Shown: positions 2,959-21,847 of the stretch, in pieces | Layout of the letters: every line of letters starts with the position of its first letter | Position numbering within the stretch: position 1 is the stretch's first letter | IMG/VR virus record: IMGVR_UViG_3300029868_000015 | Reading direction: 5' to 3' (one strand) | Source: a virus | Length of the DNA stretch: 33,978 bases | Program-made: the position numbers and the translations under genes | The notes under the pieces: generated by a model | Told to the model about the DNA's origin: nothing | Seen by the model: only the letters and a program-made list of their open reading frames with translations | Database searches by the model: none

Positions 2959-3228
2959 ATGGCTATTTCACAGGAAGTCTTTGCATACTGGCGTAAACAT
3001 GGCGCTCCCGGTGTCACAACTAGTGAACGGGAGGCCTTTGTTTCTCAGGCTAACGGCAAGACTTACACTTGTTCCAAAAAATACGAAGCTGACATTAAAG
3101 CGCAGGGTTATGAGATTGTTGGAGACGCAGCAGTTGAAACCGCAGACGATAAGCCAAGCGCTGATTATGTGGCTAAACTAGATAGTGACATTAGAACAGC
3201 ATACAACAATCATGAGGGCGATACATGA
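2959..3228 (+). CDS. Hypothetical protein (89 aa) between portal and scaffold
   Basis: ORF with the SD-like sequence aagggcg upstream. An ATGA overlap joins it to the next gene. Confidence 0.6.
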   Translation: MAISQEVFAYWRKHGAPGVTTSEREAFVSQANGKTYTCSKKYEADIKAQGYEIVGDAAVETADDKPSADYVAKLDSDIRTAYNNHEGDT

Positions 3229-4343
3229 CTGATATGACACCAGAGCAGCAACTAACCGCTGACCTTGAAAAGGCTATGGAAGAGAACTTCTCGCCTGATG
3301 AAACAGAAGCCGTGGCCGAAGAGGTTACAAAAGCTGAGGAGCCGGAAGTTGAAGAAAGTACCGAACAATCTGAACCTGAAGAACCTGCTGATTCTACCGA
3401 AGCCAACGACGAAGATGGCGAAAAGCAGCCTGAAGCTTCCGACGTGGTGGAAGAAAGTGACACAGCATTAACTGAAGACGACGAAGAATTATTAACAGTA
3501 TCCGAAAGCTGGTCTAAAGAAGATCGCGCCGTTTTTGACGGAATGGAACCGGATGCACAACAGATATTACTTCAGCAGTCCAGGAACCTGCAAAAAGGGT
3601 TCACGCGTAAATCTATGAAACGTGCGGATGACCTGAAGTCTTATGAAGATATTGCCAGCCTATACAGTGGTATGGAAGTACAGTTGAACCAAGCAGGCCT
3701 GAACCCGGTAACGGCAACTCAGAGACTTGTGGGCGCTCAACAAGCACTTATGCAGAACCCTGAAGCTGGGCTAAGGCAATTAATGCAGGAATACGGCGGA
3801 GGCGACCTTAAGGGCATCGTCACGCGTATGGCAACAGACTTAGGCATAACCGCAGCAGCCGAAGAAGGCCAAGCTGAGTATATGAGCGATACAGAGCGAG
3901 CTTTGCAACAGCGTGTAACTGCAATGGAGCAGTCACAGATACAGCGGGCTCAAGAAACACAAACACAACAAGTCAACGCATTGCAAAATCAAGTCAATTT
4001 GTTTGAAGGCGCAACCGACGACCAAGGTAACAAGCTACACCCTCACTTTAATGAGGTTCAAAATGTAATCGTATCGTTAATAAACGGCGATCCGTCATTA
4101 AACCTAGACGCGGCATATGCCAAAGCCGTTCTGACTATTCCAAAGCATTTTGACTCATTAGTGAACGATAGAGTTACCGCAGCGCAGAAGACAGCAGACG
4201 CCAAGCGGAAACAAAAAGTAGCACAATCCAAGGACGCCGGTTTTAACGTCAACTCAAATAAAGCACCAGCTAAGAGCCGCGATAAGCGCGCCAACTTAGA
4301 TGATGCAATTAATGATTCGATGAGCAATCACAAGTTTGGCTAA
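3225..4343 (+). CDS. Scaffolding protein (candidate)
   Basis: Lies between portal and capsid. It has a very acidic E/D-rich N-terminal third followed by a Q/A-rich, helical-looking sequence. Call is from position and composition only. Confidence 0.6.
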   Translation: MTDMTPEQQLTADLEKAMEENFSPDETEAVAEEVTKAEEPEVEESTEQSEPEEPADSTEANDEDGEKQPEASDVVEESDTALTEDDEELLTVSESWSKEDRAVFDGMEPDAQQILLQQSRNLQKGFTRKSMKRADDLKSYEDIASLYSGMEVQLNQAGLNPVTATQRLVGAQQALMQNPEAGLRQLMQEYGGGDLKGIVTRMATDLGITAAAEEGQAEYMSDTERALQQRVTAMEQSQIQRAQETQTQQVNALQNQVNLFEGATDDQGNKLHPHFNEVQNVIVSLINGDPSLNLDAAYAKAVLTIPKHFDSLVNDRVTAAQKTADAKRKQKVAQSKDAGFNVNSNKAPAKSRDKRANLDDAINDSMSNHKFG

Positions 4344-4355
4344 TGGAGAAATAAT

Positions 4356-5336
4356 ATGGCTTCGGCTAATTCACTGTTTGACGATATTCTGACGTCAACG
4401 CTGATCAATCGTGATGGCGCTACCGCAGATAACGTATCAAACCATAACTCACTCTTGCGCTTCTTGCGTAAGGCTGGCAACATTTCATTGTATGACGGCG
4501 GCACTTCGCTATTGCAGAACATTGACTTCGCAGAAAACACTACTTTCAAGTGGTATAGCGATTACGATGTTCTTGACGTTTCAGCATCACAGACTTTTAG
4601 CGCTGCTGAGTACGATGAGAAGCAGTCTGCTGTTACTATCACTATGTCTGGTAAAGAGATGCGCCAGAACGCAGGCAGTAAAACCCGTGTATTCGATCTT
4701 GTAAAAGCTCGTATCATGAATGCTGACCGTACCGCTGCTAACAAGATTTCTACGGCAGTATATTCAGACGGAACTGGTTCTGGTGGTCAAGAGATTGGCG
4801 GCTTGCAGCTTCTTGTTGCTGATGATCCTACATCTGGTATCGTAGGCGGCATTAACCGCGCTAACTTCAGCTTCTGGCGTAACCAGAAATTTGATGTTGA
4901 CGTTGACGGTTCTGGCGCTGCTACTGCTGCGAACATTCAAGGCTACATGGATCAGCTATGGCTTGATTGTGTACGCGGCGAAGATGTTCCTAAGATGATC
5001 GTTGCAGACGTAAACTACTACAAGCTTTTCCGCGAGTCCTTGACTGACATTCAGCGCATCACAAGCACTGACACAGCAGGCGCTGGCGCAAACAACCTTG
5101 CCTACCACGGCACAGGCGGAACAGCACAGGTAATGATGGACAAGTCAGGCCCTGCAAATCACATGTATTTCTTGAACACAGACTTCCTGTTCTTCAAGGC
5201 GCACCGTGACGCTAACTTTACGTTCCAGCCTGAGCAGACACCTGTTAATCAAGACGCTGTTGTGAAGCACCTATTGTTCCAAGGTAATATGACCATGAGC
5301 AATGCTTCCCTCCAGGGCGTTCTGTTTGACGCATAA
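4356..5336 (+). CDS. Major capsid protein (candidate)
   Basis: 326 aa ORF directly after the scaffold gene, with the SD GGAGAA. The capsid plus decoration gene pair is followed by a strong hairpin. Order matches P22-type portal-scaffold-coat. Confidence 0.7.
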   Translation: MASANSLFDDILTSTLINRDGATADNVSNHNSLLRFLRKAGNISLYDGGTSLLQNIDFAENTTFKWYSDYDVLDVSASQTFSAAEYDEKQSAVTITMSGKEMRQNAGSKTRVFDLVKARIMNADRTAANKISTAVYSDGTGSGGQEIGGLQLLVADDPTSGIVGGINRANFSFWRNQKFDVDVDGSGAATAANIQGYMDQLWLDCVRGEDVPKMIVADVNYYKLFRESLTDIQRITSTDTAGAGANNLAYHGTGGTAQVMMDKSGPANHMYFLNTDFLFFKAHRDANFTFQPEQTPVNQDAVVKHLLFQGNMTMSNASLQGVLFDA

Positions 5337-5351
5337 GAAAGGAGAATAAAA

Positions 5352-5816
5352 ATGTCTAATGTAGGTTTAATTACTGACCGTATCGACACAAGCAAGAAAT
5401 ATACACTTGGCTTGGTTTTCGAGCAAAACCTTGATGCAACTGAAACTAAAAAGTTCAAGTACATTCAATATGAAGCTGGTACTGCCGCTGTAGCGGGTGT
5501 TGCTGGTGAGGTTTGTTACTATGATGGTGCCGGGGCAACTCTAACCAACATCGTAACAAGCGATCTATCTGATAGTGTTAATGTAGGCGCTGGCGTTCTT
5601 CAGGCTAATCTTGCTGACGGTAACTTCGGCTGGATTCAGGTTCGTGGTTCCGCAACGCTTACTATCGCACTAACCGCAGGCGCAGACGGTAACGCGCTTA
5701 CACCAGTTGGCTCAACAGACGGTTCACTTGATGTATCCGCCGCTTTTACTGACCATGTTTGTGCATATGCTGACGATATTTCTGAGAAGAAAATCATCTG
5801 TGCATTTCCAGACTAA
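5352..5816 (+). CDS. Head decoration / cement protein (candidate)
   Basis: 154 aa G/A/V-rich, beta-type sequence immediately after the capsid gene, with the strong SD GAAAGGAG. The call is positional. Confidence 0.4.
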   Translation: MSNVGLITDRIDTSKKYTLGLVFEQNLDATETKKFKYIQYEAGTAAVAGVAGEVCYYDGAGATLTNIVTSDLSDSVNVGAGVLQANLADGNFGWIQVRGSATLTIALTAGADGNALTPVGSTDGSLDVSAAFTDHVCAYADDISEKKIICAFPD

Positions 5817-5823
5817 TGAATTT

Positions 5824-5849
5824 GGGAGAGGGGCTTCGGCCCTTCTCTC
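5824..5849 (+). terminator. Stem-loop with a UUCG tetraloop after the capsid/decoration genes (attenuator or terminator-like, weak U tract)
   Basis: gggagaggggc ttcg gcccttctctc gives an 11-bp stem including 2 G-U pairs. It is followed by tcctc rather than a clean T run. Confidence 0.5.
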
Positions 5850-5873
5850 TCCTCAACAACAAAGGGCGAAACC

Positions 5874-6500
5874 ATGACTGACACAGAATTTTCCATATCT
5901 CACATCCACCAAGACGGCATAGATACAGGCACATTCATTTCCATCTACACTAAAGCTATACGAATGAACCGTCAGAGCGACGAAGAAGGCCGCGAGATTT
6001 ACGAAGACCGCGTATATATTAAGATTGAACCGCCAGGACAGACAAAATCTATCGTTAACCGCCCGATCAAAGATGATGACAAGGTGCGATTTAAAGCTGG
6101 GTGGGATAAGTTCGAGAGCGGAAAAGAATGTCAAGAGGGCGGCACACCAATTGAACGCTTGGGTGATTTGCCCCTATCTCGCTATAAGGAATTGCGGGCT
6201 ACTGGCTTTAGAACCATTGAACAATTAGCAAATGCACCAGATTCAAAGATTGGCTTTATTGGCCCTGATTCTTTGAACCTGAAAAAGCAAGCTAAATTAT
6301 TCCTTGCGGGACAAACAGAGGATAGTGTAAAGTTACAAGAGCTTGAAGCAGAGAATTCAGCCATGAAAGACGAAATGGCAGAGATGAAGGAAATGCTGGA
6401 ACAGCTAACGGCAGCCGAGGCCAAGCCGTCTACACCGAAACGTAGAGGAAGGCCTCCGAAGAATGACACTGCTGACCATAGTGAAGACAGCCCTGAATGA
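5874..6500 (+). CDS. Hypothetical head-module protein with an HhH-like segment and a C-terminal AT-hook
   Basis: 208 aa. LRATGFRTIEQLANAPDSKI is helix-hairpin-helix-like. A coiled-coil stretch (LQELEAENSAMKDEMAEMKEMLEQL) follows, then KRRGRPPKN, which contains the AT-hook core RGRP. Confidence 0.6.
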   Translation: MTDTEFSISHIHQDGIDTGTFISIYTKAIRMNRQSDEEGREIYEDRVYIKIEPPGQTKSIVNRPIKDDDKVRFKAGWDKFESGKECQEGGTPIERLGDLPLSRYKELRATGFRTIEQLANAPDSKIGFIGPDSLNLKKQAKLFLAGQTEDSVKLQELEAENSAMKDEMAEMKEMLEQLTAAEAKPSTPKRRGRPPKNDTADHSEDSPE

Positions 6501-7176
6501 AATCGGTAGTACCGAGGTTCCTTCAACTGTTGTAGGTAATGAGAACGAAACAGCAAAACAATCTTTAGCGCTTGCCAACCGGGCGCTAAGGGAGACCGCT
6601 AAACGTACTAAGTGGGAATTGCTGACCAGAACAGAGACTATCACAACGGTTGCCAGTCAAGCAGAGTATGACCTCCCCTCTGATTTCAAATCAATTCACA
6701 ATCAAACAATGTGGAACACCAGCCAGCGCAGGCCAACGCAGGCAGTGACGCCACAAGCATGGTCTTTCCTGCAAGCGTTCACTGACGTTAGCGGCATTAT
6801 CCTGCATTATAGAATTTTCCGTGATCCATCCGGAAACGGTCAAAAGGTGCAATTCTTTCCAACTCCAGGCGCAGGCCAAGTCATAACATACGAATATGTA
6901 TCTAATGGATTGGTGCAATCGGCTGCCGGAGTGTTGCAGGAAGAGTTCCTTGCGGATTCAGACACAGCATTGCTTGATGAAGACACAATTGCTTTAGGTT
7001 TAAAGTGGCGATTTGAATCGGCAAAAGGTTTCCCATATGCAGAATCTTTACAGGATTATGAGAAAGCCATTGCATATGATGTAGACGCAACACCTAGCCA
7101 AATCGTTAACATGGGCGGCGGGAATAGACGCTTGCGTACAGTGCTTATTGTTCCAGATTCGATAGTTGGCTCATGA
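6463..7176 (+). CDS. Head-to-tail adaptor (candidate, P22 gp4 position)
   Basis: 237 aa ORF that overlaps the previous gene by 38 nt. Call rests on synteny only. Confidence 0.4.
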   Translation: MTLLTIVKTALNEIGSTEVPSTVVGNENETAKQSLALANRALRETAKRTKWELLTRTETITTVASQAEYDLPSDFKSIHNQTMWNTSQRRPTQAVTPQAWSFLQAFTDVSGIILHYRIFRDPSGNGQKVQFFPTPGAGQVITYEYVSNGLVQSAAGVLQEEFLADSDTALLDEDTIALGLKWRFESAKGFPYAESLQDYEKAIAYDVDATPSQIVNMGGGNRRLRTVLIVPDSIVGS

Positions 7177-8771
7177 GAACAGCAATAGCAGACACAAGGC
7201 GGCGTACCCAGACTTCCACAGTGTTAGCACTGCAAGCTCCTATTGGGGGCTGGAATACTGCTGACAGCTTGGCAACGATGCCACAGCTTGACGCTATTGT
7301 TATGGATAACTTTATACCTGACGAATCAGGCGTAATTTTGCGGGGAGGGGATACCCTCTTTGCAACCGGCATGTCGGGCGCGGTTGAAATGTTGATTGAA
7401 TACGTCTCGCCCACGGATAATCAGCTTTTGGCCGCGTCTGACGGTAATATATACAATATCACATCTGGAACACCTTCGACACTAGGTACCGGGTTTACAA
7501 ATGCACAGTGGCAGACTGCTAACTATAATACGTTCACGTTCTTTGCCAACGGCGCGGATACTGTACAGCGGTATGACGGCACCACACTAGCCAATTCAAC
7601 GTTTAGCGGCGTGACACTCTCTACACTCATTAATGTGTCTGCTGTTCGCAATCGTATCTGGTTTGCCCGTAAGAACACAGGCGAAGCATGGTACGGGGGC
7701 CTAAACGCTGTATCTGGCGCTTTGACACTGTTCGATATTGGAGAAGTTGCAAGAGCTGGTTTCCTTGTTGAAGTCTCTTCATGGTCCCGTGATGCTGGTG
7801 ACGGCATGGACGATTTAACTATCTTCACAATGTCCACGGGCGAAACCCTAGCTTATACTGGCGATGTTGCTAGCACGTTTACCCTTGTAGGCAAGTTCCA
7901 GGCTCCTAAGCCTATCGGGTTTAGATGCACAACTAACATTGGTGGCGAATTGGTTGTTATCACTGAAGGCGGTTACTTTACCCTTTCGGATATTATGGCC
8001 GGTCAGATTAGACCGCAGGACGCGCTTTCAGCTAAGATCCGGCAGGCAGTTAGTGACGCGTTTAAGGCAAGCGGCAATCTAGACGGTTGGAGCATTCATT
8101 TAACTGAAGACAACCGGCGTATGATTATCAACGTTCCTGTTACAACAACCACATCAAACCAGCATGTGTTTAACACAGTTACTAAAGCATGGGGCAGATG
8201 GTTAGAGAGAAACACCTTCTCTATTGCTTCATTCCTTGGCGACCTATACGGCGGCTTTGCAGGCGGTGAAGTGTTCAAGCTTGAAACAGGACGCACCGAC
8301 GCCAGCCGCACGGCCAAATGGGACACCACAAACACAAATTGGGAAGATACAGTTCAGTTGTGGGAGTCACCACCCGGCGCTAATATTAAAGGTTACGCGA
8401 TACAAGCATTTAACGGCTTTGAAGAAGCGTTGCCCGGCGTAAGAAACAAACAGCTATCAATGATGCAGCCCTTCATTGAAGGTACGGGTAAAATTAAAAC
8501 TACCGTTGCAGTCTGGACAGATTTCTCTTTTGGCACGCTAACATCAAACTTGCAGACACTTAATGTGGGCGGTTTGTTTTGGGAAGAAGTACCAGACTTA
8601 TGGGAAGATGCAGACTTTAATTGGGAGAACAACCAAGGGGCGGTTTCACAAGTAAATCTCTCGGCGAACGCTATAGGAAGCAGCTTTGCAGTTGCAGTTG
8701 ATGCAGACACAAACCAAAGCATAGCTTGGTATAGTACAAACTTAACAATCAGGCCGGGAGGCATTATATAA
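7173..8771 (+). CDS. Tail hub / nozzle protein (candidate, P22 gp10 position)
   Basis: 532 aa, beta-rich with repeated G/T/N-rich segments. An ATGA overlap joins it to the upstream gene. Call rests on synteny only. Confidence 0.4.
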   Translation: MRTAIADTRRRTQTSTVLALQAPIGGWNTADSLATMPQLDAIVMDNFIPDESGVILRGGDTLFATGMSGAVEMLIEYVSPTDNQLLAASDGNIYNITSGTPSTLGTGFTNAQWQTANYNTFTFFANGADTVQRYDGTTLANSTFSGVTLSTLINVSAVRNRIWFARKNTGEAWYGGLNAVSGALTLFDIGEVARAGFLVEVSSWSRDAGDGMDDLTIFTMSTGETLAYTGDVASTFTLVGKFQAPKPIGFRCTTNIGGELVVITEGGYFTLSDIMAGQIRPQDALSAKIRQAVSDAFKASGNLDGWSIHLTEDNRRMIINVPVTTTTSNQHVFNTVTKAWGRWLERNTFSIASFLGDLYGGFAGGEVFKLETGRTDASRTAKWDTTNTNWEDTVQLWESPPGANIKGYAIQAFNGFEEALPGVRNKQLSMMQPFIEGTGKIKTTVAVWTDFSFGTLTSNLQTLNVGGLFWEEVPDLWEDADFNWENNQGAVSQVNLSANAIGSSFAVAVDADTNQSIAWYSTNLTIRPGGII

Positions 8772-9921: not shown

Positions 9922-11169
9922 ATGGGTAAAAGCTCACCAACACCACCACAAGCGCCGAATCCTATCGCCATTGCAGGCGCGCAGGGTGAAGCTAATATCG
10001 AGTCGGCAATTGCTAGCGCCATACTCAACCAACAGAATGTTGTTGGCCCTGAAGGGACTGTAAGCTTCGCACAGACGGGCGGCCAGAATGTTGGCGGTCA
10101 ATTTGTCCCTTCCTTCACGCGAACCACGCAGCTAACACCTGAAGCACAAGCTCAGTTTGAAGCACAGCAGCAACTTGGCGGCGCTCTTACTGGACTAGCA
10201 CAAGGACAAGTCGGCAGGATTGAAGGCGCATTAGGACAAGGCATTGACACTTCAGGATTGCCGGGCCTCGCTGGTGGCGCTCAAGGTGGCGCTATAACGG
10301 GCGGCATTGATACGTCCGGCTTACAACAAGTTCGTCAAGATTTCGGGCAGCAAGGCCAAGAGCTTGAGCAGGCCACCTTCCAGCGGGGGCTTAACTTACT
10401 ACGTCCGGAACTTGCACGACAGCGTGGCGATGTTGAACGGCTTGTCAGTGAGCGGGGGCTTCCTATAGGCTCTGAAGCCGCACAGAACAGATTATTCTCG
10501 CCGTTTGAAGAACGCAGAAACCAAGCGTTAGAAAACCTTGCTTTAAGCTCTGTAGGCGCAGGCCGTCAAGAACAAGCTAGATTGTTCCAGCAGGGTTCCC
10601 AGCAAAGAGGGCAGCAGTTCGGCGAACAAAGCGCAGGCGCACAGTTTGCAAATCAGGCTCAAAACTTAGGGTTTAATCAGGCTCTAGCAAGTGGACAGGC
10701 AGCAAATGCAGCAAGGGCGCAAGGCTTCCAAGAGCAAGCTTTCCAGCGTTCAATACCAATTAACGACATTGCCGCATTGCTCGGTACGGCTCCAGGTGTG
10801 CAGGCTCCGCAGTTCCAGGCAACGCCAGCCTTCGGTGTACAAGCTCCTGACGTTATCGGGGCTAGTCTAGGAGCTGCTAATATTGCACAGCAGCAGTTTG
10901 CACAACAGCAGCAACAAAGCAGCGGCTTACTTGGTGGTCTATTTAACCTTGGTGGATCTTTAGGATCGGCGGCCATTCTCTCAGATCGCAGGCTAAAAGC
11001 TAACGTTCGCAAGATCGGTAAAACATCTAAGGGCTTCAATCTCTACAGCTACATTAAAAACGGCATTGAAGAGATCGGCGTGATGGCGCAGGAAGTAATG
11101 CAAACCCTACCTGAAGCGGTTGTAATTAAAGACGGCTATTATGCTGTAATTTACAATGAGGTGACATAA
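9922..11169 (+). CDS. Q/G/A-rich virion protein with a C-terminal Peptidase_S74-like (intramolecular chaperone, self-cleaving) domain
   Basis: The C-terminal 62 aa, SDRRLKANVRKIGKTSKGFNLYSYIKNGIEEIGVMAQEVMQTLPEAVVIKDGYYAVIYNEV, fit the S74 pattern (SDxRLK...GxxAQEv..v.PeaV). The N-terminal 350 aa are low-complexity, with GIDTSGL repeated twice. Confidence 0.7.
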   Translation: MGKSSPTPPQAPNPIAIAGAQGEANIESAIASAILNQQNVVGPEGTVSFAQTGGQNVGGQFVPSFTRTTQLTPEAQAQFEAQQQLGGALTGLAQGQVGRIEGALGQGIDTSGLPGLAGGAQGGAITGGIDTSGLQQVRQDFGQQGQELEQATFQRGLNLLRPELARQRGDVERLVSERGLPIGSEAAQNRLFSPFEERRNQALENLALSSVGAGRQEQARLFQQGSQQRGQQFGEQSAGAQFANQAQNLGFNQALASGQAANAARAQGFQEQAFQRSIPINDIAALLGTAPGVQAPQFQATPAFGVQAPDVIGASLGAANIAQQQFAQQQQQSSGLLGGLFNLGGSLGSAAILSDRRLKANVRKIGKTSKGFNLYSYIKNGIEEIGVMAQEVMQTLPEAVVIKDGYYAVIYNEVT

Positions 11170-15527: not shown

Positions 15528-16208
15528 ATGACCTTATTCGACATAGCACAATATGCACCTCACGCTTTACTGGTGCTGTGCTGTGTCGGCATGGCTGGGT
15601 TGCCCGGCCCAACGCTCCAAAAGCCTAATACATGGCACATGACCATGATTATCATTGCAGGGTTCAGCGCGTTTAATATGGGTGCAGCCCATGTATACGG
15701 TTACTTCATGGGACAAGAATACGGCGATTCTCTATACAGCGAATACGGTTTAAAGGAGGGGTATAACCTCTGGCAGATGACATTCGCCTATATATATTCG
15801 TTCCTTGCATTCTTGGAATTAGCCACATTTAAGATGGTTCGCAAGTATTCACAGAAGGGTAGAACGTCCATAGCGTTCCTTATGGCGGCGTTTATCTCTG
15901 TCAACCTAGCCACTATAGTTTCCCTTTTAGCTAGAATTACAAAAGTAGATACTATTGAAGTGTTTAGTTTTAATATACTTAGTGCAACTAACAGTATATA
16001 TTCCAACTATGAGCAATCGATATTGTTTTTAAATATACTACAAATACTCGTCTTATTGGGAGCTTGCAGTGGATGGTCAAGAGGTGATGCTAGTAGGAAC
16101 ATACGGGGGTTTGTATCCTTTGTATGTGGTGGCGGTAATTTTGGCGGGCTGCGTCCTATCTTTAATTCAATACGGCATAAAAGGCCTAGTCAAGGAGTGG
16201 CGACGTGA
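15528..16208 (+). CDS. Multi-pass membrane protein (function unknown)
   Basis: 226 aa with several hydrophobic segments. The gene body is visibly more AT-rich than the neighbouring virion genes. The last 46 aa look non-native and overlap the next ORF. Confidence 0.55.
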   Translation: MTLFDIAQYAPHALLVLCCVGMAGLPGPTLQKPNTWHMTMIIIAGFSAFNMGAAHVYGYFMGQEYGDSLYSEYGLKEGYNLWQMTFAYIYSFLAFLELATFKMVRKYSQKGRTSIAFLMAAFISVNLATIVSLLARITKVDTIEVFSFNILSATNSIYSNYEQSILFLNILQILVLLGACSGWSRGDASRNIRGFVSFVCGGGNFGGLRPIFNSIRHKRPSQGVAT

Positions 16209-17451: not shown

Positions 17452-17646
17452 CTAGCTCTCATCTTTTGGGGGTTTGTTGGCTAAATAGAACTCGGCGATT
17501 GCGTTGTAGAGCGCATTGCCAGTCTTGTCTCGATAACCACCATCAAAGCTCACCCCAAAACATTCAGTCAGAGAGTCAAATAACTCGTGACAACACTGCT
17601 CAATGTATTCGCTTTCCGGTCCTGTCAATTTATCCCTAGCTTCCAT
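17452..17646 (-). CDS. Hypothetical protein (64 aa)
   Basis: ATG 17646 follows the SD AAGGAT and overlaps the upstream gene by 11 nt. The C-terminus is ...LANKPPKDES. Confidence 0.5.
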   Translation of the reverse strand: MEARDKLTGPESEYIEQCCHELFDSLTECFGVSFDGGYRDKTGNALYNAIAEFYLANKPPKDES

Positions 17647-17974
17647 TGTCTGTATCCTTCGGGCGTTTGTTGTCAAAACTAGGGAAAAAATTAGCAGGAT
17701 CGGCATAGTAAGCGTGACTGCACATAATCACGTTTCTAAAACCATCGTCGCCGGTGAACATTGCCAGTATTGGATGAAAGCCACCATCAACCAAAATAAG
17801 CCACGGATTACCACTAGGCGCGTATTCGCTCTTAGGCCATGTCTTAACGTCCTCAGGGTCAAGCGTATCCCAAGCCGCATCAATACCAGCGCGCAGCATC
17901 GGCGCGGCTATGGGGGAAACGAATTCCTTTGCGGCTTCATCCTCGGCGGCAAGTTTCATTTTTTCGCTAATCAT
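17636..17974 (-). CDS. Hypothetical protein (112 aa)
   Basis: ATGA overlap with the upstream gene. The C-terminus is ...FDNKRPKDTDNGS. Confidence 0.55.
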   Translation of the reverse strand: MISEKMKLAAEDEAAKEFVSPIAAPMLRAGIDAAWDTLDPEDVKTWPKSEYAPSGNPWLILVDGGFHPILAMFTGDDGFRNVIMCSHAYYADPANFFPSFDNKRPKDTDNGS

Positions 17975-18198
17975 TTGATGCTCCCATCATTTGGGGGTTT
18001 GTTGGCAACTAGTTTGATGTGGCTTTTTCGTGCTGGATCGTTGTTAGTAACCTCAAAATCTCCATGTTGGATAAGCAAAGAAATATGCTCTTTCGCATCA
18101 CCTTCTTGCTCGAACTGCATAGCGTCATCACTGATAATGTGATCTTCATCCGATCCTAAAAATAGGCCAGTCGGCTTATGTTTGATTACGTACGTCAT
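17971..18198 (-). CDS. Hypothetical protein (75 aa)
   Basis: ORF with the C-terminus ...VANKPPNDGSIK. Confidence 0.55.
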   Translation of the reverse strand: MTYVIKHKPTGLFLGSDEDHIISDDAMQFEQEGDAKEHISLLIQHGDFEVTNNDPARKSHIKLVANKPPNDGSIK

Positions 18199-18210
18199 GT
18201 TATTTATCCG

Positions 18211-18366
18211 TTACTTTCTCGGCCTTAAAAAATACTCGTCAATGAAATGGACACCCCAAAGCAAAACGAAACTTGCATCAGCACGCTTGCCTCGGCTCTC
18301 TGTCTTGCGAACCAACCAAAACCCCACAAGAAGATATATTGCTATTGTGATGGCTATGATTTCCAT
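18211..18366 (-). CDS. Small membrane protein (51 aa, MEIIAITIAIYLLVGFWLV...)
   Basis: Hand-translated because it is below the track size cutoff. ATG 18366 is in an ATGA overlap with the upstream stop. One clear TM segment. Confidence 0.45.
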   Translation of the reverse strand: MEIIAITIAIYLLVGFWLVRKTESRGKRADASFVLLWGVHFIDEYFLRPRK

Positions 18367-18782
18367 CACGTCTCTCCCTCGACAGGTGATAGGGGTGAGT
18401 TGGCAGGATTTCCAAAGGCGGCTTGTGCGGCCTCAGTAACGGGCGTCATAGCTTCGCCATAACCCCAAACATCACCGCGCCAGTCTTTAAAGTTTCTGAA
18501 ATAATTTAAATTCACCGGCTTACCCTTTCGAATGTAGTCGGTGAACATTTTGACAATACTTTGAAGCGTTCCGCCGTTGGTGAAACCCTTATGCCAATTG
18601 TTCATGCCTGTTAGATAAATTGCCTTATTGGTATATTCATCACGCCATCTAAGATGGCCATCAAACCCAAGGAAAAAATGACCGTAGCGATCAAACTTTT
18701 TGCTGTAGAAAAACCGGCGACCATTATCGGCCATGACACGTATGAAGGTGTTCACCTGCTTTATGCGATCCGCTTTATTCAT
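18366..18782 (-). CDS. Hypothetical protein (138 aa)
   Basis: ATGA overlap with the upstream gene. Aromatic-rich sequence with no family recognised. Confidence 0.55.
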   Translation of the reverse strand: MNKADRIKQVNTFIRVMADNGRRFFYSKKFDRYGHFFLGFDGHLRWRDEYTNKAIYLTGMNNWHKGFTNGGTLQSIVKMFTDYIRKGKPVNLNYFRNFKDWRGDVWGYGEAMTPVTEAAQAAFGNPANSPLSPVEGET

Positions 18783-19030
18783 TGCTCAGTCTCCAGGGGG
18801 CGTTTGTTGGCCGGACGGGCCATTGCCCAAGTGGACTTAACTTTAACCGCATGGCTATAACCAGCGAACAAATCATTTCCTGTTGTTCCAGGATACGCAG
18901 TGGTCGTTATGCCGTTAATATTTAATTCAGTATTCACCCCCAGCAGGGTTGCAACACGGCAAAGCTCGTCACAGCCCTCTCGTATAGAAGGCCCCGCAAC
19001 ATTGTCTAACTTGAGTGTAAGGATGCCCAT
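18779..19030 (-). CDS. Hypothetical protein (83 aa)
   Basis: First gene downstream of the inverted cassette, with a candidate promoter of its own. The C-terminus is ...PANKRPLETEQ. Confidence 0.55.
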   Translation of the reverse strand: MGILTLKLDNVAGPSIREGCDELCRVATLLGVNTELNINGITTTAYPGTTGNDLFAGYSHAVKVKSTWAMARPANKRPLETEQ

Positions 19031-19048
19031 TGCTTTATCTTTCCTTTA

Positions 19049-19057
19049 TGATACAAT
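19049..19057 (+). promoter_or_regulatory. Candidate extended -10 promoter for the recombinase-like gene
   Basis: TGATACAAT (TGn plus TACAAT) lies about 50 nt upstream of the TTG start at 19107. Confidence 0.3.
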
Positions 19058-19077
19058 TCTTGTTACCAATTACATTT

Positions 19078-19105
19078 ACTGTACTAGATATGTAGGAGTT
19101 GTCAA
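19078..19105 (-). promoter_or_regulatory. Candidate sigma70-like promoter reading leftward into 18779..19030
   Basis: On the minus strand: TTGACA (19105-19100), a 16-nt spacer, then TACAGT (19083-19078). Confidence 0.4.
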
Positions 19106-19106
19106 G

Positions 19107-19649
19107 TTGAATTCAAGATTTAAAATAGGTTTTATTCAGGTTCTTAATTATGGCCCATCTGCCGATCAACAGGAACAAATGCTTGTTGGTGCTGGCGTGC
19201 TGAAGGACAACATATTCAGATCAAAGCCTGATACTATTCTTGATGCAATCAACGCCTGCCGTTTAGGTGACAAAAACATTCTTGTCGTAGCCTTTGAGCG
19301 TATCCTTGGTAAGCTTACAGGCGAGGTATTCAAACAGTTGGATGAACGGGGCGCAGACCTTTACTGTGTGGCTAGCGATACCCTGTACCCTGGCGCTAAT
19401 GGTGCGACGTTCTGCGAGTTCCTTAAGCAAAAGCAAAAGGGGCAGACTGCCAAGGCACGTTCTATGCGTGGTGATAGAAAAGGCGGCGCTCCCGTTAAGG
19501 TCACTGCTACCGACCTGCTGCGCGCTGAGAAGCTTATTCATCAAGGCTGGTCTATGCGCGAAGTCACTGACGAACTTGGCGTGGCTCCTAACTACCTCTA
19601 TCGCAAAGGGATTACGCTTGAGAGTGTCACGGCCAAGTACGACAACTGA
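19107..19649 (+). CDS. Serine-recombinase (resolvase/invertase)-like protein lacking the catalytic serine, with a C-terminal HTH; probable DNA-binding regulator
   Basis: TTG start lies 8 nt after AGGAG. IGFIQVLNYGPSADQQEQMLVGAGV..NIF...GDKNILVVAFERILGK aligns by eye with the resolvase pattern GYxRVSTxxQ....L...G.....if.D...GD.LvV..lDRLgR, but RVS is replaced by QVL. The C-terminal WSMREVTDELGVAPNYLYRK is HTH_7-like. Confidence 0.6.
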   Translation: MNSRFKIGFIQVLNYGPSADQQEQMLVGAGVLKDNIFRSKPDTILDAINACRLGDKNILVVAFERILGKLTGEVFKQLDERGADLYCVASDTLYPGANGATFCEFLKQKQKGQTAKARSMRGDRKGGAPVKVTATDLLRAEKLIHQGWSMREVTDELGVAPNYLYRKGITLESVTAKYDN

Positions 19650-19660
19650 TGACTGTTTGC

Positions 19661-19891
19661 TCATGTTCCATGCTCCATATATTGCAAATAAACATCTAAA
19701 GCCGCGAGCATTGGCCATTTAACATTGGTGCCCATAAAGCCCATGTTTTGGTAATGAGTGTCCATCCCAATCAGTGCCCGAGTTTCTCTTTCGGTCATAT
19801 CAAACTGTTCTGAGAGTTTTTCAACATCGTGTCCCTTGCAGAGTTCGTCTACCCATTCCACGATAGATGTATTATCAACTGTAGACTTCAT
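19661..19891 (-). CDS. Hypothetical protein (76 aa)
   Basis: ATGA overlap with the upstream gene. N-terminus MKSTVD. Confidence 0.55.
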   Translation of the reverse strand: MKSTVDNTSIVEWVDELCKGHDVEKLSEQFDMTERETRALIGMDTHYQNMGFMGTNVKWPMLAALDVYLQYMEHGT

Positions 19892-20082
19892 ATCATTACC
19901 TCAATCTTTACAGGCACAAATTTCAGACGCTTAAATAGTTCGTATTCACCACATATTGTATCGTGAAAATTAAGCTCGGCTTCTTCCTCATTCGATCCAA
20001 TGGCGTTGATGTAATAAACATCTTCAACAGGATCATAGGGGATTACACCCTTGAATTTCTTGTCAACTGATGACTGTTTCAT
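19888..20082 (-). CDS. Hypothetical protein (64 aa)
   Basis: ATGA overlap with the upstream gene. N-terminus MKQSSVD. Confidence 0.55.
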   Translation of the reverse strand: MKQSSVDKKFKGVIPYDPVEDVYYINAIGSNEEEAELNFHDTICGEYELFKRLKFVPVKIEVMI

Positions 20083-20318
20083 TCGATCACTCCTTCAGCC
20101 TTCAGCACAAGTTCAAGCATATGCTCAATAACCTTGCTTGCTTCAGGGCTTCTCTCTGCCGCTTTTTGAATGATTGCTTGATAGCGCCCGCAAATCATCG
20201 CGGTTGCCATACCAGAAGTGGCTGAGTGCCTATATTCGTAGCTTTCGAGCATTGCCATAAGCTCGACCACGCGAGGCAATCTATTGATGACAACTGAGGA
20301 CCTAGTAGAACTCGACAT
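20079..20318 (-). CDS. Hypothetical protein (about 79 aa)
   Basis: ATG 20318 (or 20321) follows the SD GGAGG. The track start 20441 lies inside the upstream gene. N-terminus MSSSTRSSVV. Confidence 0.5.
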   Translation of the reverse strand: MSSSTRSSVVINRLPRVVELMAMLESYEYRHSATSGMATAMICGRYQAIIQKAAERSPEASKVIEHMLELVLKAEGVIE

Positions 20319-20604
20319 CATTAACCTCCGGTTTCTGCGGCTTTGATAATTTAGGGCCCGGTGGGTTTGGCGGAAGCATCCAGTGCGTAGGCAGCAGGAA
20401 CGGGCCAAGCCATGTAGCCGTTGTCGGCGTCCATGCTTCATCCAAGGAATCCCACCCGCCAGTAGTCATGAATGGCTCTTTGAAAAGAACCCCTTCAAAT
20501 TCCTGTGAGAATTCGGGTTTGCAATACATCAGAATATGCGTCCCATCTTTGGGCGCTGTTTCCATTGGCTGCCATGTGCTATCTGATGACTTTGAATTGC
20601 TCAT
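20302..20604 (-). CDS. DUF551-like protein
   Basis: ATG 20604 is in an ATGA overlap. WQPMETAPKDGTHILMY resembles the recalled DUF551 N-terminal motif (W.p....P.dG..vL). Confidence 0.5.
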   Translation of the reverse strand: MSNSKSSDSTWQPMETAPKDGTHILMYCKPEFSQEFEGVLFKEPFMTTGGWDSLDEAWTPTTATWLGPFLLPTHWMLPPNPPGPKLSKPQKPEVNDVEFY

Positions 20605-20891
20605 AGTGACAACCTCACTTTTTGAAACGGGATAATACCAACTATCTCTTCGTCGGGAAAAACAGGCTCCTTTGACCACTCAACTTTAAAGTTGAAATAC
20701 ATGCGGCCATCCCCACTGAATTTATAGTTTCCGGGGTTAGGAATATGGACGTGCGGCAGTGCATCAACCAGATTTTGAGCCTGCCCTTTAGTGATCCTAC
20801 ATTTGCGCGCTAATTCAGAAAGCCATATGGGACCACTGCCTTTTACAATGCGGGTTAGCTTTTCGCCCATGTCAACTGAGGACTGTTTCAT
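20601..20891 (-). CDS. Hypothetical protein with a winged-helix-like segment
   Basis: N-terminus MKQSSVD. LSELARKCRITKGQAQNLVDAL looks like an HTH. Confidence 0.5.
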   Translation of the reverse strand: MKQSSVDMGEKLTRIVKGSGPIWLSELARKCRITKGQAQNLVDALPHVHIPNPGNYKFSGDGRMYFNFKVEWSKEPVFPDEEIVGIIPFQKVRLSL

Positions 20892-21109
20892 AAATCTAAC
20901 CCTTCCAAAATCTTGCGCTTCGAAACCTCCAACATGAAAACCGCTGATGAGTTATCCATATGACTGCTGGTGATTGCTAATGCGCCGTCCTTGTCATAGC
21001 TAATTATCAGAACATCTTTCATGCCTTCACGTCCGACCTTTTCAAGTGCTTGTTCAACCGTCATTTTATCATGATTGTTTAACTCGCTGACAACTGATGA
21101 CTTAGACAT
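20888..21109 (-). CDS. Hypothetical protein (73 aa)
   Basis: ATG 21109 (MSKSSVV...) overlaps the peptidase stop by 8 nt. The track start 21127 is less likely. Confidence 0.5.
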   Translation of the reverse strand: MSKSSVVSELNNHDKMTVEQALEKVGREGMKDVLIISYDKDGALAITSSHMDNSSAVFMLEVSKRKILEGLDL

Positions 21110-21545
21110 GTGGCAACCCCTTCGCATAAAGATTGTGCGTCTTAGTTAAAACCTCGTTCCGGTTCTTCTCTGAGATGCTGCAATGTATCCAGGCTTTCCC
21201 GAGCTGACGCTGTTCGAGTATGAGCTGGTCAAACTCAACATTGTCTCTAATCCAGCGCGCTAGATTTACAATGTCAATTCCTGGCACGGTGAAGTCAACA
21301 GCTTGGCCTAGCATGTGCTGGCTTTTCGGTGAGCCTCCTATAGCCGAGTTAAGCGCCTCACATCTAAACCCGCTACTAGGCGTTATCGGTACACCGTAAT
21401 GCTCTCTGACGGGCTGTAAAATCTCGTTACATACGCGCTCAAGGTATTCTTCTGCCTTCTTGTCAGGCGTGTTGTCTATGCCTTCACGTTCCGCTGTATC
21501 GCTGCGGGTCATTTCTGCAAGGGTAAAGTTTTTGCTCAGTTCCAT
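21102..21545 (-). CDS. Peptidase M15 family (VanY / L-alanyl-D-glutamate peptidase-like) cell-wall hydrolase; endolysin candidate
   Basis: FTLAEMTRS...SGFRCEALNSAIGGSPKSQHMLGQAVDF...WIHCS matches the recalled Peptidase_M15_3 zinc-site pattern (SGyR...N...GG...SqH..G.AvD...H). Confidence 0.8.
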   Translation of the reverse strand: MELSKNFTLAEMTRSDTAEREGIDNTPDKKAEEYLERVCNEILQPVREHYGVPITPSSGFRCEALNSAIGGSPKSQHMLGQAVDFTVPGIDIVNLARWIRDNVEFDQLILEQRQLGKAWIHCSISEKNRNEVLTKTHNLYAKGLPHV

Positions 21546-21745
21546 TGTTTAAGCCTTTCGAATGCTTCCAGAACGTCCGACCACTTAGCAGGGCCGGGTA
21601 ATACCTTACCATGTCGCCACATTGACCAACTGGTTGTTGAAACGTTAGCGTCACCTAGAAACTGTTCTAGCGTTACATCTCGAATTTTCATCTCTGCTTC
21701 AATAGCGTGCGTTTTCCGCACTATCTTCTCAACGGTTATAATCAA
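21536..21745 (-). CDS. Cro/XRE-like HTH regulator, first gene of the leftward block
   Basis: TTG start lies 7 nt after AAGGAG. VTLEQFLGDANVSTTSWSMWRHGK fits the XRE-type HTH pattern. Confidence 0.55.
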   Translation of the reverse strand: MIITVEKIVRKTHAIEAEMKIRDVTLEQFLGDANVSTTSWSMWRHGKVLPGPAKWSDVLEAFERLKQWN

Positions 21746-21763: not shown

Positions 21764-21794
21764 TCTTTATACGCTGTACATATATATACGTCAA
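21764..21794 (-). promoter_or_regulatory. Candidate leftward early promoter
   Basis: On the minus strand: TTGACG (21794-21789), a 19-nt spacer, then TATAAA (21769-21764). The spacer is longer than the optimum. Confidence 0.35.
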
Positions 21795-21847
21795 GTTTAT
21801 TTAAATAAAGCTGATGCCTATTGACTTCTTTATATAAGTACATATAT
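21774..21847. promoter_or_regulatory. Two exact 10-bp direct repeats, GTACATATAT (21774-21783 and 21838-21847); operator candidates
   Basis: Read directly. The copies are 64 bp apart start to start, one inside each divergent promoter candidate. Confidence 0.45.

Follow-up and report, generated by a model that had tools for sequence, protein, structure and literature searches.

A serine recombinase homologue without its catalytic residues and an antisense reading frame with a coupled start in the early operon of an uncultured phage

The Leftward Early Operon and Its Counter-Oriented Gene

The window analyzed here, a stretch of 33,978 nucleotides (IMG/VR record IMGVR_UViG_3300029868_000015), is the genome, of approximately 34 kb, of a tailed phage that has not been cultured. 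The portal protein is 26–30% identical to the portals of Mx8, Stenotrophomonas phage BUCT555 and Brucella phages, and its gene content further includes an Sf6-type small terminase, ERF, DUF1367, HNH, DUF1064 and an M15 peptidase. An integrase was not detected in the open reading frames (ORFs) of the window that were tested, and a megablast search with positions 18000–21000 against GenBank phages matched nothing. A block of leftward genes reaches from about 21745 down to about 16450. The subject of this study is the sole plus-strand gene with independent support within this block, 19107..19649, together with the gap on its 5′-side (19031–19106) and an antisense ORF that passes through it in the direction of the operon (Table 1). 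Between the convergent genes no terminator was found up to about 400 nt 3′ of the stop codon of the plus-strand gene.

The early genes share a start motif, which is called MK.SSV here. With up to two mismatches the 12-mer AGTCATCAGTTG is present in exactly seven copies, at 19643–21102, and every copy lies at the start of a minus-strand gene. The N-termini at these copies are MSKSSVV, MKQSSVD (twice), MSNSKSS, MSSSTRSSVV, MKSTVD and MSKQSSVV. The 16-mer core of the motif had three matches with up to three mismatches, compared with an expectation of 0.32. An earlier description of the window by a model that had been given only its letters and ORFs, in the following called the sequence-only reading, had counted a seventh copy of the motif at the end of the plus-strand gene, and the scan bears out this count.

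Table 1. Features of the embedded gene, its flanks and the shared motifs (coordinates refer to the window unless a locus is named)
Feature	Coordinates	Strand	Basis or remark
180-aa degenerate small serine recombinase homologue	19107..19649	+	homologues, Gin profile match, AF2 model, Foldseek
Shine-Dalgarno sequence AGGAG, 8 nt 5′ of the TTG start	19094..19098	+	sequence
Candidate rightward promoter TTGCTT-N16-TACAAT with TG extension (TGATACAAT, 19049-57)	19030..19057	+	consensus-level
Candidate leftward promoter TTGACA-N16-TACAGT	19078..19105	-	scan, 10/12 matches
Candidate operator, inverted repeat TACAT-N14-ATGTA, 24 bp	19071..19094		covers leftward -10 and start; about +8 to +31 of the rightward transcript
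Pass-through (bridge) ORF, 133 codons	19263..19664	-	codon-for-codon reverse complement of sense codons 54-180
Initiation region of the pass-through ORF: Shine-Dalgarno GGAG (19676-19673), 8-nt spacer, ATGAGCAAACAGTCATCAGTTGTC (19664-19641; seventh MK.SSV motif)	19641..19676	-	
Two TACATAT elements (21777-83, 21839-45) in GTACATATAT direct repeats of the main divergent early gap	21777..21845	+	possible extra binding sites
Six further AGTCATCAGTTG copies at early-gene starts upstream of the region of the plus-strand gene	19876-87, 20064-75, 20291-302, 20580-91, 20873-84, 21091-102	-	motif scan
Start-codon promoter-like element	window 19099-19126; L001 9993-10020; L002 9993-10020; L008 2414-2441; L009 898-925; L005 314-341		
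MK.SSV motif copies	window 19643-21102; L001 10799, 11207, 13188; L002 12208; L004 10587; L009 2252; L011 4094; L012 1874, 2097, 1625		

The Embedded Gene Encodes a Serine Recombinase Homologue

The TTG start of the plus-strand gene agrees with the N-termini of four homologues (M-x-x-R-[FHY]-K-[IM]-G-F-I), which are 49–57% identical to the window protein and are encoded on phage-sized metagenome contigs; the block from GAGTTGTCAAG to the start is kept at two related loci, L001 and L009. A profile of the four homologues matched the Gin invertase (3uj3/4m6f) over residues 7–169 with an E-value of 6.8e-5, and in a set of 33 aligned relatives PF00239 was matched by 13 and PF02796 by 14. As a single sequence, the window protein yielded only marginal helix-turn-helix (HTH) matches in Pfam, weak PHROG matches over the HTH region, including a small terminase (E=0.021) and a DNA invertase (E=0.022), and one weak tblastn match in GenBank phages (26% identity, annotated as “DNA invertase”).

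An AlphaFold (AF2) model, which was built on the family alignment, had a predicted local distance difference test score (pLDDT) of 94.1 and contained strands and helices in resolvase order, i.e., a catalytic-domain fold, an E-helix (99–122), a three-helix HTH (134–166) and an extra conserved C-terminal helix (171–179). When it was compared with the PDB using Foldseek, the top 28 matches were gamma-delta, Tn3, Sin and a gamma-delta/Hin chimera. The best matches were 1gdt, 5cy1, 2r0q, 2gm4 and 1zr2, with E-values from 3.5e-8 (1gdt) to 2e-6 (up to 6e-7 for the first three), and the alignments to the first four of these comprised about 175–180 columns each. Viral resolvases were matched as well in BFVD. 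Because the family profile, the AF2 model and the Foldseek results agree, the view of the sequence-only reading that the gene product combines a resolvase/invertase N-domain with a C-terminal HTH was confirmed at the level of profile and predicted fold, though the single-sequence evidence is weak.

The protein thus resembles the small serine recombinases (gamma-delta/Tn3 resolvase, Sin, Gin/Hin) in its length of about 180 amino acids, its alpha/beta catalytic domain, its long E-helix, the linker and the C-terminal three-helix HTH; the profile alignment with Gin extends over the full length, and small serine recombinases are its top structural matches. Unlike them, it possesses the additional conserved C-terminal helix (RKGITxxSxxAKYD), it is unrecognized by Pfam, and no recombination sites were found for it.

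The family is unannotated and rare, and it retains the whole architecture of the small serine recombinases while the chemistry has been discarded. A profile search of 1.84 billion representative proteins returned only 50 matches at E≤1e-3. No members were found in 50,697 GenBank phage records, IMG/VR, JGI metagenome contigs and 185,579 GTDB species genomes, and tblastn searches of GenBank phages with the relatives P0016 and P0008 had no matches. Nine relatives that lack the serine belong to nameless protein clusters of one or two sequences; only P0025, which retains R-x-S, belongs to a cluster that has a name (“DNA invertase Pin-like site-specific DNA recombinase”). In the literature searched no description of a resolvase of this kind without the serine was found. 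Papers on Ralstonia filamentous phages were rejected as a precedent, their subjects being an active resolvase-like integrase and an unrelated repressor.

The Catalytic Residues Are Lost

The active-site stretch of the protein reads GFIQVLNYG, and the R-V-S of resolvases is replaced by Q-V-L, as the sequence-only reading had noticed. Ser9 of Gin, the equivalent of S10 of gamma-delta, aligns with Leu13. In the four closest members this position is L, M, L and L, and in the wider clade without the serine it is V or another non-Ser residue. The position of Gin Arg7, the equivalent of R8, is Q, K, S or A in the close family, and the equivalents of R68 and R71 are also unconserved. DRLGR (D67-R68-x-x-R71), with its acidic residue and arginines, has become FERILGK, and E64, R65 and K69 are not kept in P0005 or P0006. 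The GRP arm, which contacts the minor groove, is lost as well (GGRPPK to GGAPVK). A conserved glutamine is retained (Q22, corresponding roughly to Q19 of gamma-delta). In the wider clade (P0007, P0008, P0012, P0014, P0016, P0047) the arginine is kept and the serine is absent. No alternative nucleophile is conserved across the clades.

Crossover-size inverted or direct repeats were not found around the gene or a neighboring segment; the gene ends share only a 7-nt inverted match, AGTTGTC, and recombination sites flanking the gene were therefore rejected. Because the nucleophilic serine, the catalytic arginines and the GRP arm are all gone, the product of 19107..19649 is very probably a non-catalytic DNA binder, as judged from alignment and model.

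The Position of the Gene Is Conserved in Divergent Phages

The surroundings of the gene were compared with those of its homologues (loci L001 to L012). The same position was found in L001, L002, L008, L009, L004, L005, L011 and L012, down to 25% identity: the gene is the first rightward gene at a divergent gap of 65–116 bp, and the other side of the gap is the start of a leftward gene. At its 3′-end the oncoming leftward gene is 5–11 nt away, or it follows after one or two extra plus-strand ORFs. The resolvase-like gene heads a rightward operon in L006 and L007, and it is co-directional with its neighbors in L010 and L003. Altogether, it is the first gene of a transcription unit that leaves a short divergent promoter-like gap at 11 of 13 loci, the exceptions being L010 and L003.

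The phages that carry the gene form a rare group; they are uncultured and either temperate or derived from temperate phages. In L008, with 49% identity, the leftward genes that follow are five small ones and then a tyrosine integrase, and a Phage_integrase gene lies 1.3–1.6 kb from the resolvase-like gene in L008 and the distant relative L004. The latter is a prophage on a 118-kb bacterial contig, in which this distance is 1.6 kb and the main switch consists of a separate gene for a protein with HTH_31 and Peptidase_S24 (CI-type) and an adjoining Cro-like gene. In L001 and L002 the called genes of the portions that were fetched do not include an integrase. A Pfam search of the window protein showed neither an S24 nor an HTH_3 domain.

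The conserved position speaks against both a recent replacement of a cassette and a function as primary immunity repressor. The sequence-only reading had proposed that a minus-strand cassette was replaced at the start motif, a proposal left without support by the lone opposite-strand position that eight relatives retain down to 25% identity and by the nature of the motif copy as a coupled start (see below). It had also considered an immunity or repressor function in a genome without integrase. The absence of an integrase was borne out for the ORFs tested; a function as primary immunity repressor seems unlikely from these gene arrangements because L008 and L004 have integrases and L004 has its own CI and Cro.

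A Coupled Antisense Reading Frame Passes Through the Gene

The minus-strand ORF opposite the gene starts with an ATG at 19664, which forms an ATGA overlap with the TGA stop codon of the gene 19661..19891. The last codon (Asn) and the stop codon of the plus-strand gene are encoded opposite the ATGAGCAAACAGTCATCAGTTGTC motif, directly after the conserved KYD. Given the protein and the codon usage of the phage, the probability of an open antisense run of this length from the 3′-end is 0.0004. Eight loci, i.e., the window, L001, L002, L008, L004, L005, L011 and L012, have the gene embedded against an operon, and at all eight a Shine-Dalgarno sequence (GGAG, GAGGG, GGAGG, AGGAG and similar) and an ATG overlapping the upstream stop codon or a few nucleotides past it open a frame in codon register with the sense gene. 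The length of this pass-through ORF varies sevenfold, with 133 codons in the window, 65 in L001, 193 in L002, 213 in L008, 295 in L004, 442 in L005, 194 in L011 and 384 in L012. At four of the eight loci (L008, L004, L005, L012) its end and the leftward gene that follows share an ATGA overlap. L009 has only a truncated register ORF of 70 amino acids. The GC skew flips over the gene, and the leftward RNA is C-rich and G-poor exactly there.

The sequence-only reading had described the seventh motif copy as an orphan that leads just into antisense sequence. The coupled ATG and the open register ORF at every embedded locus do not agree with this description, and the copy at 19664–19641 is to be read, from these features, as a working start and not as a scar.

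Codons That Would Close the Antisense Frame Are Depleted

In the register frame antisense stop codons arise solely from the sense codons TTA, CTA and TCA. Three such codons were observed in the window compared with 9.4 expected (P=0.005), and two compared with 6.2 in L001 (P=0.03). They were missing altogether from the gene in L002 (3.7 expected, P=0.018), L008 (2.9 expected, P=0.04), L004 (3.9 expected, P=0.012) and L005 (2.9 expected, P=0.045). The depletion was not seen in L009; Fisher’s combined P for the six loci and this non-conforming one was 1.5e-5. Three further loci were fetched after the hypothesis had been formed, two of them embedded or probably embedded (L011, L012) and one co-directional (L010). 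No antisense-stop codon was present in L011 (7.4 expected, P=1e-4) or L012 (7.9 expected, P<1e-4). The non-embedded relatives had no depletion (L010, P=0.30; L006, P=0.71; L007, P=0.12; L003, P=0.76). Hence the prediction from seven loci held in two new embedded loci and in four co-directional controls.

The test was calibrated with 113 other genes of the same loci, 4.4% of which had P≤0.05 and none P≤0.005, and the target gene had the lowest or second-lowest P at every locus. The GC content of third codon positions (GC3) or a general codon bias was rejected as the cause: GC3 of the target gene is not consistently above that of the reference (in L004 and L005 it is below), and among the codons of this gene the T-ending CTT, TCT and AGT show a 1.2- to 2.2-fold enrichment.

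A conserved antisense protein was rejected as well. The identity of antisense translations between loci was 0.27–0.33 compared with 0.22–0.26 in simulations from the sense constraint, most pairs not being significant, and is thus close to the sense-imposed level. The antisense product belongs to no Pfam or PHROG family and has no homologue among 5.8 billion proteins. Because the peptide is unconserved, variable in length and without family or homologue, the simplest reading of these sequence data is that selection on the minus strand acts on the openness of the frame, and hence on translation, while the peptide is unconstrained.

A further case was seen elsewhere in the operon. A plus-strand ORF of 179 amino acids (17603–18142) lies antisense and in codon register to the minus-strand gene 17636..17974, which has no antisense-stop codon compared with 4.1 expected (P=0.0066, the lowest of the 113 reference genes). 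It could be due to chance or could be a mirror image of the pass-through phenomenon.

The Gap Holds Opposed Promoter Candidates and a Candidate Operator

Both promoter candidates of the sequence-only reading were recovered in the 76-bp gap. The leftward one was found by the promoter scan. The rightward one is an extended -10 element; its -35 region (TTGCTT) is weak and the promoter is unlisted by the rule of the scan, and TGnTACnnT is invariant in the alignment of the window, L001 and L002. The predicted start sites, about 19064 on the plus strand and about 19071 on the minus strand, face each other at a distance of about 7 nt, in accordance with the face-to-face geometry that had been described.

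A leftward promoter candidate with a perfect TTGACA is present in the gap only in the window, L001 and L009, with 10, 10 and 9 of 12 matches, and these are the loci with a truncated ORF. At the six loci with a complete pass-through ORF the best leftward promoter has just the background level of 8/12. This distribution is consistent with the pass-through role proposed below. Because the three loci are each other’s close relatives, the pairing of promoter and truncated ORF may go back to a single evolutionary event.

The inverted repeat TACAT-N14-ATGTA is a candidate operator, as judged from its sequence and location. TACAT/ATGTA occurs in nine of ten upstream regions of the family, a result matched by none of 500 composition-preserving shuffles, and ACAT-N2-5-ATGT was found five times in 1.2 kb of gaps compared with three times in 128 kb elsewhere. 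In L003 the candidate operator has the identical arm spacing of 19 nt. TACATAT is present five times in the whole window, and three of these copies lie in the two regulatory gaps.

Two further features of the gaps were noted. In the main divergent early gap the GTACATATAT direct repeats occupy 21776–21785 and 21838–21847, 62 bp apart; one copy overlaps a rightward TTGACT-N16-TATATT promoter (21821–48), and the other lies in the spacer of a likely leftward promoter. A LexA-box reading of CTGTACATATATATAC in this gap was rejected by eye, as its right half is mismatched. At six loci a promoter-like TTGnCA-N16-(T/C)AAA(A/G)T spans the start codon of the resolvase-like gene (Table 1). Its -10 part is made by conserved F-K-I codons and transcription would begin inside the gene, so that the element is probably a by-product of coding constraint.

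Discussion

The results can be combined in one model. The protein is probably a non-catalytic, sequence-specific DNA binder that acts as a dimer. It would bind the TACAT inverted repeat in the gap (19071–19094) and would thereby repress its own extended -10 promoter, i.e., regulate itself, as well as the opposed leftward promoter. The leftward promoter of the gap would restart transcription of the distal early genes, which end with an integrase in relatives. Transcription of the leftward operon would cross the plus-strand gene in antisense, and the resulting mRNA would carry a Shine-Dalgarno sequence and an ATG coupled to the upstream stop codon. Synonymous choice in the sense gene, avoiding TTA, CTA and TCA, would keep the antisense frame open. 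RNA that is C-rich, G-poor and untranslated favors loading of Rho; ribosomes that translate the pass-through ORF would stay behind RNA polymerase on the C-rich antisense stretch, and in this way Rho-dependent polarity would be avoided and the chain of coupled genes preserved. Strong early leftward transcription, protected from Rho by the pass-through ORF, would silence the plus-strand gene by collision and antisense effects. This explanation, a non-catalytic regulator at a divergent gap together with an ORF that keeps the operon translated, is preferred overall, with a confidence only slightly better than even.

Known systems offer parallels for both parts of the gap. TnpR of Tn3/gamma-delta represses at res as well as recombining, and the res subsites have 25–34 bp. 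Like TnpR at res, the resolvase-fold protein of the window adjoins a short divergent promoter gap, where the predicted binding of a dimer to inverted repeats would repress both units. With its 24 bp the candidate site is about the size of a res subsite. Unlike TnpR, which is an active recombinase, the window protein appears from its residues to be without catalysis, the TACAT half-site is unrelated to the res half-sites, and binding is only predicted. Face-to-face promoters with converging, overlapping transcripts and mutual interference are characteristic of the phages P2 (Pe/Pc) and 186 (pR/pL), and the window likewise has opposed promoter candidates, one of which would read a small regulator gene. 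In contrast to P2 and 186, the predicted starts are only about 7 nt apart in a 76-bp gap, a dead resolvase takes the place of a C- or CI-type repressor, and the unit lies mid-operon and is not the main lysis-lysogeny switch. The family would be a clean natural example of a recombinase that has been converted to a DNA-binding factor.

The pass-through ORF touches on two general phenomena. In translational coupling, ATGA overlaps pass ribosomes from gene to gene, and untranslated C-rich RNA is a substrate of Rho. As regards antisense shadow ORFs, the codon-register frame is the one most easily left open. Unlike passive shadow ORFs, the pass-through frame has its own Shine-Dalgarno sequence and ATG, by which it is coupled to the gene upstream; its end is often coupled to the gene that comes next, and it is open by biased synonymous use only where the gene is embedded against the operon. 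It is tempting to generalize that phages which embed an opposite-strand gene in a coupled operon keep such a coupled ORF open by synonymous choice, that the peptide is meaningless and Rho is blocked, and that the ORF decays where a downstream promoter evolves, as in the window, L001 and L009; this generalization is advanced tentatively, its chances being somewhat short of even. No precedent for a coupled pass-through ORF in codon register was found in the literature searched. If the phenomenon is general, it would represent a novel class of translation, selected although no protein is coded for, and synonymous sites would be subject to a constraint of a new kind. Some long antisense ORFs that have been dismissed as shadow ORFs would then be selected features, the codon usage of embedded genes would be informative about transcription across them, and gene callers and dN/dS analyses would have to allow for pass-through ORFs. 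The surroundings of the resolvase-like gene also suggest how a counter-oriented gene could enter a tightly coupled operon without breaking it.

Several alternatives concern the junction and the antisense frame. The motif copy at 19664–19641 could be a recombination scar, with MK.SSV as a short-homology junction for cassette exchange, by which the plus-strand gene or its neighbor would have been acquired, and the antisense ORF incidental. The motif is indeed found at seven gene starts of the window and at gene starts in L001, L002, L004, L009, L011 and L012, the window copy is identical in 22 of 22 positions to the start of the gene that adjoins the plus-strand gene in L001, and the final Asn codon and stop codon of the plus-strand gene are supplied by the opposite strand of the motif. 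In addition, a plus-strand direct repeat of about 30 nt (10547–10575, 10839–10868; AAGTATG(T)ACAA..GGGACCGGTCAGTCAT) surrounds the gene 10554..10853 in L002; one of its copies comprises the 3′-end of the resolvase-like gene and the start of the bridge ORF, and it resembles the trace that insertion or duplication of a gene at the junction motif would leave. A scar leaves unexplained, however, why depletion of antisense-stop codons extends over the whole gene and is absent from co-directional relatives, and it does not fit the recurrence of the embedded arrangement with a coupled ATG at the exact junction at all eight embedded loci, to 25% identity. As a sole explanation it is considered improbable, while the two ideas are compatible: the motif may serve as a favored start region and at the same time be a hotspot of recombination. 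That the minus-strand ORF is a genuine coding gene, so that the locus would be a true antisense overlapping pair or, in the extreme version, the ORF would be the sole expressed product, is judged very unlikely. Such a gene would account for the length (133–442 amino acids), the proper Shine-Dalgarno and ATG starts, the ATGA overlaps at both ends at four loci and the depleted stop codons; yet the length varies from 65 to 442 amino acids with truncation at three loci, the similarity between loci and the database searches gave no sign of a conserved product (see above), and it is the plus-strand frame that bears the resolvase homology and is intact at every locus, including the co-directional ones.

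Other alternatives concern the function of the protein. It might be an architectural accessory of recombination, which bends or synapses DNA like the non-catalytic resolvase subunits at res II/III or serves as a directionality factor, and thereby aids the tyrosine integrase or another recombination or packaging reaction. The nearby Phage_integrase genes of L008 and L004, the retention of the full resolvase architecture including the E-helix, and the weak PHROG matches to a small terminase and a DNA invertase are in line with this idea, which nevertheless appears unlikely, as the gene is conserved where no integrase was detected (in the tested ORFs of the window and, for L001 and L002, in the called genes of the portions fetched), a small terminase of the Sf6 type is already encoded by the window, and the candidate binding sites are on promoters rather than at an att-like site. 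A moron-like accessory gene for superinfection exclusion, defense or anti-defense, with its own promoter and without regulation of phage genes, has a still smaller probability. The layout is the classical one of morons, a lone gene in opposite orientation that has its own promoter within an early operon, and L004 has a separate CI/Cro switch, but one precise position at a divergent gap and recurrent upstream TACAT elements in very divergent phages are better explained by an autoregulated regulator. Finally, it is hardly credible that the protein is still an active recombinase with a non-canonical nucleophile, such as the family-specific Tyr15 or Ser14/Ser18, that acts on GTCAnCnGnTGAC palindromes at gene junctions. 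Y15-G16-P17 is invariant in the five closest members, and several phages have both the gene and the junction motif, which is palindromic in part; against this, Tyr15 is replaced by G, M or I in the wider clade without the serine, residue 14 of the window protein is Asn, the phosphate-activating arginines are gone too, and no crossover-size repeats surround any invertible or excisable segment.

The preferred explanation, a DNA-binding regulator combined with a pass-through ORF, has to be weighed against a number of observations that speak against it. All members of the family are from uncultured metagenomic contigs, and the evidence comes from sequence and model. The Pfam models Resolvase (PF00239) and HTH_7 (PF02796) had no match to the window protein alone at E-values up to 1. 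Promoter-like sites are not enriched in the region (5 found, compared with 10.6 in shuffles). TACAT is a short AT-rich word that was picked out post hoc, by inspection of the sequences; the spacing of its arms differs from locus to locus, and its enrichment is partly inflated by intergenic composition. The link to integrase control cannot apply to the window, because no integrase was found among its tested ORFs. The pass-through ORF of the window covers 71% of the gene and stops 233 nt short of the next gene, and it is shorter in L001 and L009. With respect to codon depletion, the hypothesis was post hoc for the first seven loci, the P values for L008, L011 and L012 are based on small reference sets (438–866 codons), and the loci are related, though synonymous sites are saturated at these distances.

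Additional Observations on the Early Regions

Early-gene starts of several divergent phages with the resolvase-like gene have the MK.SSV start motif (AGTCATCAGTTG) in common, down to its nucleotide sequence. An imperfect palindrome of 13 bp, GTCAnCnGnTGAC, forms the core of the motif, and the copy at 1625 in L012 is without a start codon. The motif could serve in translation initiation, as a junction for recombination or as a site bound by a protein. In the distal leftward block of the window a second junction repeat, of the GGGGGTTTGTTGGC type, is present at 16100–16114, 17455–17481, 17648–17674, 17980–18006 and 18786–18809; on the minus strand it codes for the C-terminal ‘..ANK(P/R)PxD..’ of successive small proteins and contains the Shine-Dalgarno sequence of the gene that follows. 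The operon thus has different conserved junction modules in the halves that flank the resolvase-like gene, the GGGGGTTTGTTGGC type distally and the AGTCATCAGTTG motif upstream.

The first gene of the leftward operon (21536–21745, minus strand) has a TTG start and encodes 69 amino acids that look like a small HTH protein by eye (TLEQFLGDANVSTTSWSMWRHGK), with only a marginal PHROG match. Its product is a candidate for a Cro/Ner-like early regulator of the main switch.

Two of the related loci contain further uncommon genes. In L001 the large terminase gene (3029–5164) includes an intein (PF14890 Intein_splicing together with PF04466 Terminase_3). The phage-like early region of L005 harbors a LuxR-LuxI-LuxR trio at 4999–7499 (Autoind_bind, Autoind_synth, and Autoind_bind with GerE), which adjoins an HTH_3 repressor-like gene and a Phage_CP76 gene and may be a phage-borne quorum-sensing module.

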